NCBI GenBank assembly: GCA_001275005.1
Contig: JWZX01003190.1
Location: forward strand, 1 to 37,325
Source: Chrysochromulina tobinii
Taxonomy: Eukaryota
DNA length: 37,325 nucleotides
Direction: 5' to 3'
This document shows, in pieces, positions 8,316-37,074 of this stretch. The translations under genes were made by a program, and so were the position numbers. The notes under the pieces were generated by a model. It had not been told where the DNA came from, searched no databases, and was given only the letters and a program-made list of their open reading frames with translations. How positions within the stretch are numbered: position 1 is the first letter of the stretch; each line of letters starts with the position of its first letter.

Positions 8316-8896
8316 CTCGTCTCTCGACGGGTTGCAGCGAAAAAAAGTTTGGGACTCTCAACTTCCGCAACAGACATGGACATGTTTAACCCAAGTTCGT
8401 ATGTGCAACAATATGCGATAATCCCGCGCTGCAACCACCTGCATGGTACATGTTGTGAGGTATAAACGATTTTTTAAACGAAAGCTCTGAGCACCCTCTG
8501 TGCTGAGCTCATCAAACCGGGGTGACGGGGGGTTTCCTATCGTTTTGAGGGGGGGGGTCCTATCAGAGACGTATCCTGATGTATCCTGATGTATCCTGCA
8601 TGTATCCTGATTGTATCTTGATGTGTCCCGTAAAGAAATGTTGAAAGTAACAGCAAGTCAGATTTAAATTTTGAGATACATCAGGATACACTCAAGATAC
8701 ATGTACATGTACGTGTATCCTTCACGATACATGCAGGATACATCACGATACATAAGGATACGTATCTGATAGGACCCCCCCCAAAACGATAGGAAACCAC
8801 CCCGCACCCCATGAAACAGGAGTACCGGCTTCTAGCCGCCATTTATTCCGCCGCCACCGCCCTTGCGCCACCGCCCCCGCATCCATATCGACCGCG
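8012..8896 (+). repeat. Dispersed direct repeat (two copies, 8012-8036 and 8872-8896)
   Basis: Exact 25-mer CGCCCCCGCATCCATATCGACCGCG in both; each copy is followed by CGCCATCGCC, a T-tract and CAAAA(A)CAGCA-AAACA-AAAAAA. Confidence 0.75.
8519..8810. mobile_element. MITE / non-autonomous DNA transposon with ~90-nt TIRs
   Basis: Left end GGGGTGACGGGGGGTTTCCTATCGTTTTG...GGTCCTATCAGA is mirrored by right end TCTGATAGGACC...CAAAACGATAGGAAACCACCCCGCACCCC; subterminal GTATCCTGAT/ATCAGGATAC decamers; flanks ATCAAACC and ATGAAACA look like a degenerate 8-bp TSD; no ORF. Confidence 0.85.
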
Positions 8897-15686: not shown

Positions 15687-16551
15687 CTAAATGTCCTTGA
15701 CGGTCAGGCCGGGCGGCAGCGACTGCTTCAGCTTGTCGGCCTTCTCGAGGTCCTTCACGCACAGGGTGTACAGGTATTTGCTGCAGCGCACCTTGAACTT
15801 CACGACGTCCTTCGACTTCTTGATCTTAACGGCTGCGGGGAGCGAGCGGGCACGGGGCTGTCAGCAAGGCTGACGCAAGCTATGGCGGATGGCACAAGGC
15901 GTAGCAGCGCAGCAGCACGAGCGTAGCCCCACGATGGGCCGCGCCCCCTACGCTGCTGTGGGCCGGGCCACACTCCGCCGCGCCATGCTGCAGCACTTGG
16001 CAATGATCGAAAGCTGGCTGAGGGCTCACGACTCGCAACTGCGTCCGGCCATATCGATCTCTCGCCTGGACGATACAGAGCAGAGAAGCGATGCGGCCGG
16101 GCGCAGTAGCAAGGGACGGCGAGCCCCTTCAGGCGGCGAGGCGGCGTGCTCGCGGAAGACGCTCCGAAATGCCGCAAAGCACGGTGCAGCTGCACAGAGC
16201 GGTGGTCGCTGCCTCAATGGCTGCTCCGTGCAGCAGCAGCAGCGTGCCTTGCAACATCTCGGTGCGTCTCGCGTGCGCATCGCGCCGCCACCGCCACAGC
16301 GTCAGCAGAGCGCCGCCGATATCCGCTTGACGTCTCTCTCTGGCATGCAGGCTACGGAGCGAAGGCCACGCAGCGCAGGCAGGTTCGTGGCATTCGCTGG
16401 TAGCGTACACTTGGCGTCCTTCCTGCGCGCGGTGAGCAGGAAATCCTTGATCTCGTTGATCTGCTTCGGCTGCGAGCACGCGAGTCCGAGCACGACCCGT
16501 CAGCCAGTCAGGGTCAGGCAAGCGAGGCAGAAGAGGCGCGTCGCTCACCAT
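15687..16551 (-). CDS. RPL38: 60S ribosomal protein L38 (eL38), 3 exons (16551-16549, 16469-16409, 15832-15687)
   Basis: Spliced product [73 protein letters not shown] introns at 16548-16470 and 16408-15833. Confidence 0.95.
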
Positions 16552-19409: not shown

Positions 19410-20863
19410 ATGATCGCGATGCTCATCAACTGTGTAGCGGATAAGACCAAGGCCCACAGCGTTGCCATCATCTCGGTCGTCTTTTCGCCCGATGGCACGA
19501 AGATCGTGTCGGGATCGATTGATGGGACGATCAAAGTCTGGGATTTTGGTGCGCCGCGGAGCCTCGAATCGCCCCTCCTTGGCGAAGACTGACGCCATTT
19601 GGCTTGCCTGGCAGACAAACTGGAGCTGTTGAGCGAGAAGACAAACGCCCACAGCGACTGCATCAACTCGGTGGCGTTTTCCCCTGACGGCACCAAGATT
19701 GTGTCTGGATCGTGGGACAAGACGATCAAAGTCTGGGAATCTGGTGCGCCGGAGCCTCGAATCGCCCCTCCTTGGCCAAAACTGACACCTGCTGGCTTGT
19801 CTGGCAGGCAAGCTGGAGTTTCTGAGCGAGAAGACCAACGCCCACAGCAGCTACGTCATGTCGGTGGCGTTTTCCCCGGACAGGACCAAGATCGTGTCTG
19901 GATCGGCTGACGGGACGATCAAAGTCTGGGATTCGGGTGCGCTGCAGCCCTCATATCACCCCTCCTTTTGGCTAAAACTGACGCTTGATGGCTTGCCTGG
20001 CAGACAAGCTGGAGATGCTGAGCGAGAAGACGAACGCCCACAGCCACTGGGTCATGTCGGTGGCGTTTTCCCCTGACGGGACCAAGATTGTGTCGGGATC
20101 GCGCGACGGGACGATCAAAGTCTGGGATTCAGGTGCGCCGCGAGCTCAAAATCGCCCCTCTCCTTGGCCAAAACTGATGCATGTTGGATTGTCTGGCAGC
20201 CAAACTGGAGCAGCTGAGCGAGAAGACGAATGCCCACAGCCAACACCTCACGTCGGTCGCGTTTTCCCCACACGGGACCAAGATTGTCTCGGGATCGGGC
20301 GACAAGACTATCAAAGTCTGGGATTTGGGTGCGCTGGAGCCCTCGAAATCGCCCCTCCTTGGCCAAAACTGACGCCTGCTGGCTTGTCTGGCAGGCAAAC
20401 TGGAGCTGCTGAGCGAGAAGACGAACGCCCACAGAAACTACATCGAGTCGGTCGCGTTTTCTCCGGACGGGACCAAGATTGTCTCGGGAGCGCACGACAA
20501 GACGATCAAAGTATGGGATTCAGGTGCGCCGCGAGCTCAAAATCGCCCCTCCTCGGCCAAATCTGACGCCTGCTGGCTTGTCTGGCAGACAAACTGGAGC
20601 TGCTGAGCGAGAAGACGGACGCCCACCACCACTACGTCAGGTCGGTGGCGTTTTCCCCGGACGGGACCAAGATTGTGTCTGGATCGGACGACGGGACGAT
20701 CAAAGTCTGGGATATGGTCAAGTGGTCTCGCAAAGATCATTTGATGTTCAATGATACCACCCAGCGATTTGTCTTGCTGCTGCTGTGGATGAAAAAATGC
20801 AGTATGAAGTTTCCGGATGATGTGCTAGATCTACTCATCGAAGCTTGCTTGCAAAGCAGGTGA
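19410..20863 (+). CDS. Seven-repeat WD40 protein, one repeat per exon (19410-19548, 19615-19743, 19808-19936, 20004-20132, 20200-20328, 20395-20523, 20589-20863), 352 aa
   Basis: Repeat consensus [12 protein letters not shown]....[22 protein letters not shown]; six phase-1 GT-AG introns of 64-67 nt; spliced length 1059 nt is in frame; a pyrimidine tract plus CAG at 19408 suggests a further upstream exon. Confidence 0.9.
19450..20713 (+). repeat. Tandem exon+intron array, ~193-196-nt period
   Basis: Both the exons and the introns (GTGCGC...AATCGCCCCTCCTTGGCCAAAACTGACG...GGCTTGTCTGGCAG) are repeated with high similarity. Confidence 0.92.
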
Positions 20864-21246: not shown

Positions 21247-23441
21247 ATGGAGACGAGTGCGACGTCGCCCTCGAACGCGGTCGCGATGATGACGCAGCAG
21301 GCGGAGGAGCAGTGGCGTCGCGCCGGTGGCCATGTGCTCCCGCCATTCGCACCGATTGCGTGCGCGAGCCGTCGAGCATTTGCGCTCCTGCAGGCGGCTG
21401 CAGCGCTCGACCAGGAGTGCGCACGGCTTCGACAGGAGCTGTGCGAGCTCAACACTGGTGAGGACGCAACGCGCCGCGTGCGCGCGTGCGTCTCGCCAAC
21501 GTCAAAAGCCGGCGCGGCCGCACAGCAGGAGATGGACGATGAGTCCGACGGCAGCGACCTGCAGGGCTCGCTCGTCGCCGCCAATGTGCGGCCCGGGAAG
21601 CCCTTGGTGCTGCTGTCCGCGCGGGACGGGCTCGAGCACCGAGCGCCCGACGGCTCGCTGCGACTGATCGCCGCCGACATGCTCTCCGAGCGAGAGCGCG
21701 AGCAGCTGCTCGCTGGCGGCTTGGTCGCCATGGCCGGCGCCTTCAGCCGCTGCGGCCAGACTACCCTCGGTATCTCCCCGGCTCTCGCGGCGCGTGTGCT
21801 CGCAACGACGGCGTCGGCGTCGGCCGCCTCGGGCGCAGACGGCACCGCAGGCGCTGCGGCCGCGCTCTCCTCCACCGCTATGGCGGGCGCGGACCTTTCA
21901 GGGACGGTGCCGTTGCTCTACCGCGTCGTCGAGCGCGCGCGCCGTCGGGTGGCCGCTGCGTTCGGTGCCGACCTGGCGTCGCTTCGCGTGAGCGACGCCA
22001 CGTTCACACGGCTGCAGCCGGTCAGCACGCCCGGTGCAGGCGGCGCACGCACACGCAAGCCAGGCAGCGCGGCGCGCTCCAGCAGCACCAGCAGCGCGGG
22101 CCACCATGGCAACGATGGCAGCGCTGGCGAGGACGGTGGAGGCGCTTGCACCTGCAGCGAGCACGACGACGTCGTCGACGAGGACGAGCTGCTGGCATGA
22201 GGCCACCGCCGCCTGGTGCTCTCGACGTGGGTCTGCTGCGGCACGATCAGTTCTGCTACTGGCGCGCACACATCGATCAAGTGAGCGCGTCTGAGGACCT
22301 CTGAGGACCTCTGATGACCTCTGATGACCTCTGATGACCTCTGATGACCTCTGATGGCGCGCACACATCGATCAAGTGAGCGCGTCTGAGGACCTCTGAT
22401 GACCTCGGATGACCTCTGATGACCGCTGATGACCGCTGATGACCGCTGGTGACCGCTGATGATCAGGTGAGCGTCGCGGAGTATGAGTACTCGGCACTCC
22501 TCTACCTCACGCGCTATGGTTCGGCCGCGCCCACGGAAGAGGGCGGCACTGGCGCCACTGCCGGCGGCGCCGCTGCCGGCGGCGCCGCTGCCGCCCCAGT
22601 CGGCGATTTTGAGGGCGGGCGGCTCGTCTTCCACGACTTGGACGCCGATCGGGTGGTGCTGCCCGAGCCTGGCGTGCTGGTCGCCTTCGAGTCTGGCGCG
22701 CCCAACCTGCATGCTGTCCAGCGCGTGACGCGCGGCAGCCGCTTCGCGCTCACGATGTGGTTCACAAGCAAGGCAGAGATGCCCGGCGCGGCGGTGGACC
22801 CGACGCACGCGGCGATGCAGCAGTGGGCAGCGGCCCTGCCAGATCCTCGTGTCGATGCCCCGTCCCCCATCACGCCACCGCTCACGGCGGCGCCATCAGA
22901 GGTCATCAGCGGTCATCAGCGGACATCAGTGCTCGCGACAGCGCCGCCGCCGCCTTTGCCGCCGCTGCCAGCGCCACCCTCCTCCAGGCTGCCCTCACGC
23001 GAAGAATCGCTCGTCTCGGCGGCCATCTGTTCTCTACCCGCAAACGATCCGCTCAATCGAGCGCTCGTCATCGCCAACGCCGCGGGCGGCCATCAGCTGG
23101 GTGCCATCCTCGAAAGAGCATTAGGCATCCCTGCTGCTCTAGCATTTGCGACGCCTCGCCCGTCCCCAGGCCAGCCACCGCCGCCGCTGCGGCTGGTGGA
23201 CGGCGTCGGCGGTGCATTGCTTGCGAGCCGCGTCGGCGCGCTCGACGCGCTTCAGACGACGCTGCTGCGGGCTCGGGCCGAGAGGGCAGCTCAGCAGCGC
23301 GCGAAACGGCCCACGCCCACGCAGGCCGTCCCCGGCCTGCAGTCACCGCCTCCAGACCCGCTGCCAGCCCCGCCGGTGGGCGCAGATGCGCCTGCGCCGG
23401 CCAAAAGCGGCGACGATGCCTTCTCCGTGTTCGACTTTTAG
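21247..23441 (+). CDS. 2OG-Fe(II) oxygenase, OGFOD3/prolyl-hydroxylase-like; one intron (22281-22466) and an apparent frame disruption near 22188
   Basis: DATFTRL; HDQFCYWRAHIDQ|VSVAEYEYSALLYL (HxD motif); DFEGGRLVF; NLHAVQRVTRGSRFALTMWF (distal His and Arg). Confidence 0.78.
22281..22466 (+). other. Repeat-filled intron (186 nt)
   Basis: GTGAGC...GATCAG; decamer array CTGA(T/G)GACC(T/G); internal copy of the exon end plus donor (22355-22399 = 22260-22304); junctions GATCAA|GTGAGCG and GATCAG|GTGAGCG. Confidence 0.85.
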
Positions 23442-23950
23442 GAGCCCAGTAACCGATGAGAGGGCCCTGCCCCTGAGATGCACAGGTGCGCTCCAGTTCA
23501 TCGCCGGGCGGCAGGCTCCTGTGTCGTCCTGACTCCTGTGCCACTGTCATACGGAGACAACGGTAACGTTTGCACCACGCCATGCACCACACGCGCACAC
23601 CAATTATACGTAAAAGCCTCCCGCTGCGTTGAGCCTGAGACGGTGTGAATGTATTAGATGTTACATGTCACGAAGCCATTCGAGACGATTGGAAAACGTT
23701 CGGTTCGAGCTTGTGTGACCAGTGATAGCTGGACACGGTTTTACGGCGTCACGCGTAATTATGATTCTTGATTGTTGGCCCTTACGTGTGCCACCACAAC
23801 GAGCCCGGGGACCGGACTGTGCTTCGGGACCGCTGCCGCTAGCGCTCGTAAGTGTTTTGTCTTCATACGGCTCGCGCGCAGCGCGGTGCGCGCGCTCCAC
23901 GAGCTTGCAGCTGGTGCCTTGCAGGCGGCGCGCGCCGTCGGCACGTCGGC

Positions 23951-34603: not shown

Positions 34604-37074
34604 TCACAGCCTCCTCACGGCGACATCTTGGATGCGTGCGCGACGACGTGTGTGGCACGTGGTGGTGGGAAGGGGGAGCGGCCTCGAGAGCGCCAGGCAC
34701 TCAAGCGGCAGAACATAGTCCTCCTCGGGTAATCTCCGCCAATGCGAGATCGAGTCGAGCAGCCATCTCGCGTCGAGCAGTTTGAGCGTGGGCAACAGCT
34801 TATGCGCCTGCGCCTGCCGTAACAGCTGGCGCGTGCGCTCGCAGTGGACGGAGCCCTCAGCCAGCAAGGCAGGCGGCACGAGCATGTGGGTCGAGCTGGG
34901 GAGTACCTGAGGAGGGAGGCAATCAAGTGCAATTAGTGATCATCAGATGGCAATCAAGAGCATGTGGGTCGAGCTGGGGAGCACCTGATGAGGGAGGCAA
35001 TCAAGTGCAATTAGTGATCATCAGATGGCAATCAAGAGCATGTGGGTCGAGCTGGGGAGCACCTGATGAGGGAGGCAATCCGGTAATCAGCGATGAGGAA
35101 GCACTCAGAGGTCATCAGCGATGAGGAAGCACTCAGAGGTCATCAGAGGTCGAGCTGGGGCTGATGACGAAGCACTCAGAGGTCATCAGGGGTCGAGCTG
35201 GGGCGCACCTCGGCATACACCGCAGCCCCGCACCGACGCGCGAGCTGCACCTCCGGAGGCACTACCCCATCGACAAACAGCAGAGACGAGGGGCCGACGA
35301 AGGTACAGGCCACCCCAGAGAGGAGCCTGCCGCACTGCGCTAGCAGCAGCTCGCGAACGTCTGCCGCTGGGCGCACCGGCATGAACATCTCAGTGCTGCT
35401 CGTGCTGCTCGTGCCGCTCGTGCCGCTGCTGCCGCCTGCGCCGGTACTGCCGCTGCTCGTCGACGGAGCGGCTGCGGCTGCGGCACCAGCGGGAGGCCGT
35501 GGTGCCGCCACCTCCTCGTCGCCGCCGCCGGCCATTGTCATCGCCGTCGGCAAGCACAGCTCCGCGGGCGCCTCCGCTGGCGCCGCTGCTCGTGGCGGCG
35601 GAGGCGGCGCCGCCTCCGCCGCTGCTGTCGGCGCCGCCTCCGCCAATGCGGACGAAGCGGACGTGTAGGACGCGACTTCGTACGAGCCAAGCGACGGAAC
35701 TCGGTGGAGACGCGAGGGGGCGCTGTCCTGCGGAGCGCCGTCCTGGGCGCCCGTCCACGAGGCTTGTTGGGCTGTCGACGACGCCATGAGGGGCGAGCGT
35801 GGTGCTGAGCGGCCTCCCTGGCTGAGTGCATGCGTGCCTCCCTGGCTGAGTGCATGCGTGCGCAAGGCGCTGCCTTCGCGGGACGCACGCCGGCTTACAC
35901 CGTCCTGTGGAGCGCCGCACTGGGCGCCTGAGCACGGGGCTGTGTGGGCAGTCGACGGCGCCATGATGAGCGGCGAGCGTGGTACTGAGCGCGCTGGCTG
36001 CCCGCTGCCGTTGCCGTCCACACCACCAGCGACGCCGGCTCCGGCGCCGGCTCCTGTGGAACCTGGGGAACTCTCCGCGACCGGCGAGAGGGGCTGTGGG
36101 CAATGTCGAATCCCAGCGGTGGCATTGTGCAGTGAAAATGGGGAGAGGCCGCTGGATGGGCGCACGGTCAAGCTTCGTGGCGATCGCGGCGGCCTGTCAT
36201 AGCGCTCGAAGTACGCCCGATGGATGGCCTTCAGATGCTCCGCCACGCGGGGGAGCGACACGTCTGTGGGCGCGCCTACAAATCGATCGATCAGCACCAG
36301 ATTGGGCACGTGATTCGCCCACGCGATCGGCGAGTCGTCGACGATGAGGACGAGCTCGGGCACGCAAAGCAGCCGCTGGAGCGTCTTGGTGGTGCGGTCG
36401 AGCGCAGGGTGCCATGCAAGCACCTGCCCGGGCTTGAAGATCTCATGCTTCGGGTCGAGGTAGTGCAGCGCCTGCTGTACGTACCTGCGCAGGGAAGGCG
36501 AGGCGCCATGGTGAGCACTATGCCGGGAGGGCGCGGCGCCGTGGTGAGCACTATGCCGGGAGGTTGCGGCGCCATGGTGAGCAATGGTATGCTTCGGGTG
36601 CAGCGAGGGCGGCTTGATGCACGCACTCGCGCGAGCCCATCACCTGATGAGGGTGGCAATCAGCATGCACTCAAGGGCATTCCGCATAGTCCACGCACTC
36701 GCGCGAGCCCATAGTGTACAAATGGACGCAGAAGAGGTCGGCCATCTGTCCCAGGAACTCGTGGACACCCGGGCGCAGCCGCATCTCAAACTCCACATTC
36801 TGCACGCGCAGTGTCACCTCTGTCACCCCGCCTCCCTCGGCATCCGCCGCCGCGTCGCTGCCGCCGAAGCTCACTGAGGCCAGCCCAGCAGACGACTTGT
36901 CGGCGTTGTCGCGAGCGGAGGAGGGAGCGCCACTGCCTGCGGCAGGCGCCACACCGGGCGGCAACGGACCGATTGCGGACGGCGCCACCGGTCCCGGCTC
37001 AGGCACCGGTATGGAGCTATCACTGGTGCCCTCACTATTGCTACTACATGAGCGGCTGCCGAATGACGTGGCGG

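Follow-up and report, generated by a model that had tools for sequence, protein, structure and literature searches.

Exon 2 of a 2OG-Fe(II) oxygenase gene in the freshwater haptophyte alga Chrysochromulina tobinii carries, in frame, a short reversed copy of the decamer repeat that fills introns of the same DNA. We analysed positions 1 to 37,325 of contig JWZX01003190.1 (assembly GCA_001275005.1), a stretch of 37,325 bases that we refer to as the window; its DNA is GC-rich and eukaryotic, and a GC content of 63.4% is given for C. tobin (PMC4580454). Our confidence is a little better than even that the insert is a one-time templated filler from break repair or template switching, probably accompanied by a short target duplication and tolerated as a stop-free sequence. 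It is a real, modest case of a known type of mutation, attached to what is possibly an undescribed route of intron gain. Coordinates are collected in Table 1.

Table 1. Features of the oxygenase locus and RNA contigs over the insert, in window positions
Feature	Position	Strand	Remark
Oxygenase exon 1	21247..22280 (approx.)	+	window has 2 extra bases, 22194 and 22212
Upstream intron, GT..AG, 186 bases, sense decamers	22281..22466	+	orthologs read HIDQ|VSV across
3' part of upstream intron, predicted to pair with the insert in pre-mRNA; candidate local template	22421..22461	+	fold z -4.98
Oxygenase exon 2	22467..23441	+	PF13640; open from 22467 to stop 23439-23441
Left flank repeat, LTAAP codons	22881..22894	+	candidate first copy of a putative target duplication
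Reversed intronic decamer copy, 3.6-3.8 units	22892..22929	-	in coding exon; + strand codes (P)SEVISGHQRTS
Right flank repeat, LATAP codons	22932..22945	+	51 bases after left copy
Gap-free RNA contig over insert (X11)	22570-23494		
Gap-free RNA contig over insert (X15)	22762-23227		polyA run
Gap-free RNA contig over insert (X13)	22770-23040		
Gap-free RNA contig over insert (X14)	22808-23040		

An antisense decamer copy in the oxygenase gene

The reverse complement of positions 22894-22929 matches the periodic unit CTGATGACC[T/G] of the intron decamer at 35 of 36 letters, and the segment is translated in frame as PSEVISGHQRTSV. The first-pass annotation had described an antisense decamer copy inside a coding exon, and its coordinates, letters and reading frame are confirmed; compared with the upstream intron itself, 33 of the 36 letters agree. 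The insert measures 36-38 bases and is identical in L001 and L003, which are further assemblies of this DNA. A 16-letter pattern of two units occurs 19 times in the window, three of them within the insert, against 0.03 occurrences expected from shuffled sequence. As found, the insert has no stop codon in any of the three plus-strand frames, and when flipped it has stops in all three. Since antisense decamers are stop-free and sense decamers contain stops, selection alone accounts for the antisense orientation of the exonic copy. No inverted termini were seen in the insert sequence.

Because the insert is inverted and lies ~430 bases outside the intron, it cannot have arisen by slippage within that intron. 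The earlier preference for insertion over slippage is upheld to this extent; it does not carry over to the intron arrays, which also duplicate and change their number of units (the 95-base duplication described below, and the unit loss in relative P0004). Insertion and slippage are compatible within this repeat family.

The exon 2 frame identifies the gene as a 2OG-Fe(II) oxygenase, and the insert forms residues 143-155 of the 324 that the exon encodes. Both extra bases in exon 1 are missing from L001 and L003, where the frame is open, and from an RNA contig (X16), so that the two exon 1 frameshifts are errors of this assembly. Named homologs come from Haptolina brevifila and Prymnesium parvum, and the near-identical relatives from lake and culture samples. 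A single-protein homolog search returned 8 distant homologs and no full-length spliced version of the oxygenase, an alignment-based search confined to 964-2750 residues gave no longer homologs, and an Atlas search recovered the oxygenase family again and nothing else, with all scores <0.9.

The insert is located in a Pro/Ala linker, which has 68 residues here and 41-91 residues in the 23 distant orthologs measured. Subtraction of 17 codons leaves 51 residues; the row placed closest in the tree, a weakly supported placement, has 52. Residues 124-175 are without secondary structure in a structure model (low confidence, mean pLDDT 50.5). The linker is a hypervariable region that likely tolerates added sequence.

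Presence in RNA and among relatives

RNA contigs span the insert without a gap in four of six runs; being contigs, they may include DNA or pre-mRNA. Among the contigs of all six runs no splice-like joint removes the insert, and retention in the mature mRNA, on which the first-pass reading depended, is likely. The contigs of X12 and X16 end within the repeat and carry no information on splicing, and no contig of the six runs was seen to bridge the upstream splice joint at the 22281-22466 intron. One apparent joint in X16, between 22595 and 22942, was rejected as a mis-laid repeat: it has 28 letters on one side, ends in CC..AG and is GCC-rich.

We examined 32 close relatives, drawn from clusters of 44, 16, 1 and 1 members, of which 29 cover the site. 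The insert is present in all 29, and none represents an empty allele. Its peptide is unchanged in 26; one relative has S replaced by L, in P0044 the first unit is altered to match the neighbouring unit, and P0004 (one sequence, two contigs) has lost one unit of 10 bases with a frameshift, a loss that may be an assembly collapse. The insert-bearing relatives form two clusters that are ~87-91% alike in protein. Given its presence in every relative that covers the site, the insert appears to be older than the split of these two lineages. The rest of the linker is about equally conserved among the close relatives, and conservation of the plus-strand protein is seen to either side of the insert.

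None of 26 distant orthologs carries the peptide, which disposes of the objection that the segment might be conserved as protein sequence. The 17-residue indel that had been expected from such a comparison cannot be read from the alignment, because the linkers of the distant orthologs cannot be aligned.

Flank repeats of the insert and of its family

The two flanks of the insert are alike at 11 of 14 positions in the window and at 10 of 14 in the L002 allele. At 15,707 control positions, taken from 11 coding stretches with approximate boundaries in the window, a likeness of 11/14 occurs by chance at 2.2% and of 10/14 at 6.3%; a variable-length score gives a chance of 3-10%. Taken alone the flank repeat is thus marginal, with a chance of 2-10%, and a target duplication at this site is suggestive only. 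The left flank ends in GCC (22892-22894), three bases that also fit a common variant of the repeat, and many matches start at 22892; these bases may represent microhomology at the junction. Both the 17-codon size and the duplication remain unproven, because an empty allele was not found among the 29 relatives.

The repeat-filled introns of the window present a clearer picture. Junction repeats scoring at least 7 are found in four of the five (9/10, 9/10, 12/13 and 19/21, with 9/12 in the fifth), and these introns begin with a copy of the start of the next exon. Such repeats occur in none of five other introns (at most 4 bases), and 3 of 90 cross pairs reach the same score; the sample is small, with boundaries inferred from reading frames. 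The 12/13 likeness belongs to the oxygenase intron at 22281-22466; it is partly donor consensus, and one cross pair scores equally high. A decamer intron on another contig (L012) is a counter-example, with a junction repeat of CAG|GT only. On the minus strand, the intron at 34907-35208 begins with 21 bases that copy the next exon's start (19/21). Acceptor and exon start together recur twice more inside it, as copies of 78 bases, and three units within it are antisense. Within the minus-strand intron at 36485-36698, in a gene that we take from its motifs to be CTD-phosphatase-like, an exact 21-base duplication at 36620-36712 brackets 51 bases of decamer-family filler; the duplication copies the exon end and donor, and the filler comes with an acceptor cassette.

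In all five repeat-filled introns most of the decamers are sense-oriented. The bias may stem from the likeness of CTGAT to the branch-point consensus and of CATCAG to the acceptor that these introns use. Emiliania huxleyi reportedly has intronic tandem repeats of 10-11 bases, a parallel in another haptophyte, with strand-biased intron filler whose unit spans roughly one helical turn; flank duplications and antisense exonic copies are not said to be part of that report.

A search with the repeat peptide gave 267 matches (E up to 0.001), of which we considered the best 150 (P0061-P0210). They look like antisense readings of introns. None of the 150 is credible as a real protein, and a second exonic antisense case was not found among them, in a search that favours long arrays and is blind to inserts of 12 residues. 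The search therefore lends no support to the suggestion that antisense inserts might be common, and a multiple of three in length as a rule. The one match to pass the Pfam cut-offs, P0179, proved to be an unrelated repeat. For annotators the result carries a warning: the antisense strand of repeat-filled introns is open in all frames and produces many false ORFs, which enter public collections as predicted proteins (here 267 representatives).

After removal of 7 unrelated repeats, 143 antisense ORFs remained. An exact duplicate of at least 6 unique residues surrounds family sequence in 25 of them, and six have one without it; this count sees in-frame spacings only. Cross pairs share a word of at least 6 residues in 21 of 10,153 cases. 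Inspection showed about 5 of the 25 to consist of degenerate repeat units. Many of the others reflect secondary duplications in which flank and array were copied together, as in the 95-base duplication of the oxygenase intron. The repeat family is associated with duplicated flanks, and more clearly so than the single insert shows. The first-pass claim of flank duplication on insertion thus holds for the family as a whole, in introns and ORFs, and falls short for the insert's own flanks. The tie of the family to flank duplication nevertheless suggests that a true duplication at the insert is likelier than the raw chance figure would indicate.

The neighbouring intron and candidate templates

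The match between the reversed insert and the upstream intron includes exact runs of 22 and 20 bases, and both contain the minority G-type unit (51 of ~610 peptide proxies). A 95-base tandem duplication at 22260-22448 takes in the end of the exon, its donor and a portion of the array, and offers a second donor site. The copies are identical over 45 bases, and the duplication is therefore probably recent, and younger than the insert. An intron at this position is also present in the distant haptophytes L010 and P0051 and absent in L004-L007, and the tree settles neither gain nor loss. In relative P0049 the intron-end residues finish in H instead of Q, reflecting either a changed or shifted acceptor AG in this allele or a sequence error.

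Other arrays match as well. One locus, on an RNA contig (X13 record 2), agrees with the insert at 38 of 38 letters, and two DNA runs from the same DNA each contain ~600 contigs that match it at 85% or more. These matches do not extend past the edges of the repeat (22889-22936), and their loose ends vary. Judged from such likeness, both the neighbouring intron and a distant array are possible templates.

Origin of the insert

We hypothesize that four units of an existing array were copied backwards by a polymerase acting at a break or a stalled fork; the source array could be the upstream intron, 430 bases away, or any of hundreds elsewhere. Copying would have been primed by 3 bases of microhomology, and the same step would have duplicated ~14 bases of the target, leaving the exon 51 bases longer. 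The process that formed the insert may also be the source of the flank-filler-flank footprints in introns. Selection would then sort the products: sense filler, with stops in all frames, would persist only where it is spliced, and antisense filler only in frame in a tolerant loop. The peptide encoded by the insert may have drifted to fixation without a function of its own.

The footprints in the window hint that repeat-filled duplications could also create introns in this alga. We speculate, as a tentative and rather doubtful generalization, that an orientation-blind process drops decamer filler between target duplications of 10-40 bases, with sense copies at AG|GT becoming introns and antisense copies becoming linker sequence. 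The earlier statement that sense insertions become introns is plausible, and it gains no support from the neighbouring intron, whose position is shared with L010 and P0051. The origin of new introns is still open outside the Introner lineages. If filler does enter in both orientations with target duplications, antisense copies in exons would represent the raw mutation free of selection for splicing; such copies would form a built-in control for comparison with introns, and would allow a direct test of this route of intron gain. As an isolated event in a flexible linker, the insert is a modest finding. Even as a single case, it shows that DNA of an intron repeat can end up as protein sequence with no new splice site involved. 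Antisense Alu exonisation and the palindromic elements of Rickettsia likewise turn repeat DNA into in-frame protein sequence in tolerant regions. Unlike these cases, the insert uses no new splice sites, and its unit is a satellite-like repeat of 10 bases and not a retroposon or palindrome.

Among the alternatives, the one that survives best is a local template switch without target duplication, in which the 3' end of the neighbouring intron was copied backwards and the copy replaced or added to linker sequence. The flank likeness would then be chance among Ala/Pro codons, which is within reach of the control figures, and the event would be uninformative on the origin of introns. The close match to the neighbouring intron and the shared G-type unit agree with such a switch, and templated insertions copied in inverted form from DNA close by are on record (PMC8421209, PMC5453318). 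We nevertheless judge it unlikely: the match elsewhere is complete, the 20-base run needs the 95-base duplication that is probably younger than the insert, and the family as a whole is associated with duplicated flanks.

A dedicated non-autonomous mobile element of the Introner kind, with its own enzyme, insertion in both orientations and variable target duplications, would make the insert a truncated antisense copy. Introners with 4-base target duplications are reported from a Chrysochromulina genome (PMC9860276), Replitron-1 makes duplications of variable length, and C. tobinii reportedly has one Replitron locus (PMC10288648). Several features render this reading improbable. The insert is a bare periodic repeat that lacks fixed ends, terminal inverted repeats and an acceptor cassette, and the five filled introns differ in unit, in length (102-302 bases) and in their ends. 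Insertion of Replitrons is orientation-specific, a gene for the enzyme was not found, and the exact repeat pattern of 26 letters has no match in viral contigs.

Whatever its origin, the insert might have been kept by selection, if pairing of the pre-mRNA with the 3' end of the upstream intron tuned the splicing of the oxygenase. The predicted duplex (22421-22461 with 22894-22934) has 38 pairs, an energy of -70.9 kcal/mol and a mean pairing probability of 0.89, and ends 5 bases before the acceptor; the predicted fold has -358 kcal/mol against -321 (sd 2.7) in 15 shuffles of the insert. The constancy of the peptide in close relatives would also fit. We regard such a role as quite improbable, as any reversed copy of a repeat would by construction pair in this way, conservation among close relatives is similar in the remainder of the linker, and splicing may finish before the insert is transcribed.

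Finally, the possibility that nothing was transferred from an intron at all, so that the segment would be a cryptic or retained intron, an intron of an antisense gene, or a CATCAG seed expanded in place by slippage, is largely refuted and hardly tenable: 15 in-frame GT..AG pairs at least 40 bases apart can be drawn around the insert on paper, each flank ends in a donor-like pentamer on the minus strand, and slippage-type changes have occurred at the site (P0004 and P0044), but RNA contigs of four of the six runs cross it unspliced, the minus strand has neither an acceptor nor a homolog-supported gene, and slippage from a seed would not yield the full 10-base family unit with its two known variants.

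Relation to known systems

Templated insertions have been described as MMB-TI or MMBIR (PMC8421209), SD-MMEJ (PMC2943611) and short template switches (PMC5453318). As these sources present them, the insert is alike in being short, inverted and copied from existing DNA, with a possible junction microhomology of a few bases. A template match that is often inverted is characteristic of the class, and here such matches are found both in the neighbouring intron and at another locus. Unlike those cases, the template is a genome-wide intron repeat that is not pinned to one locus, and the copy has reached fixation within an algal coding exon, with no known pre-insertion allele.

Intron gain by double-strand-break repair in Daphnia and by tandem duplication of AGGT sites is treated in a review (PMC3443670), which warns that junction repeats need comparison with conserved introns. 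The repeat-filled introns of the window resemble these gains in having filler between short direct repeats at AG|GT (four of five), above the level of the other introns and with L012 as the exception. They differ from the gains described there in that the filler is one recurrent decamer family and the duplications reach 20-40 bases; the insert differs in being an unspliced antisense counterpart and not an intron.

Introners are elements similar from end to end with duplications of 3-9 bases, and some are found in Chrysochromulina sp. (PMC9860276). The decamer family shares with them, in the terms of that work, a repeated intron sequence across many unrelated genes and target duplications able to supply splice sites; the decamer filler is periodic, variable in unit and length, and without defined ends. 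The insert is not an Introner, because it has no defined ends and is unspliced in the RNA contigs. Literature searches, the scope of which stopped short of the Introner-family supplement of PMC9860276, returned nothing on the decamer or on antisense exonic copies.

Occurrence of the repeat elsewhere

With a looser pattern, viral contigs gave 19 single matches without arrays, which we took as chance. In prokaryote genomes one search gave no matches, and another returned one stray eukaryote-like contig, L012. This contig of 1440 bases was assigned to a bacterial genome bin and carries the same decamer intron, in a gene that is presumably radical-SAM-like from its motifs; it is likely haptophyte DNA that was mis-binned.

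Two further repetitive regions were observed in the window. At 8519-8810, between genes, inverted arms of 36 and 61 bases with 89-93% complementarity surround GTATCCTGAT decamers in both orientations, and the whole looks like a foldback or MITE-type element. At 19482-20713, a WD40-like gene contains about 6 tandem units of 196 bases, each with its own short intron.
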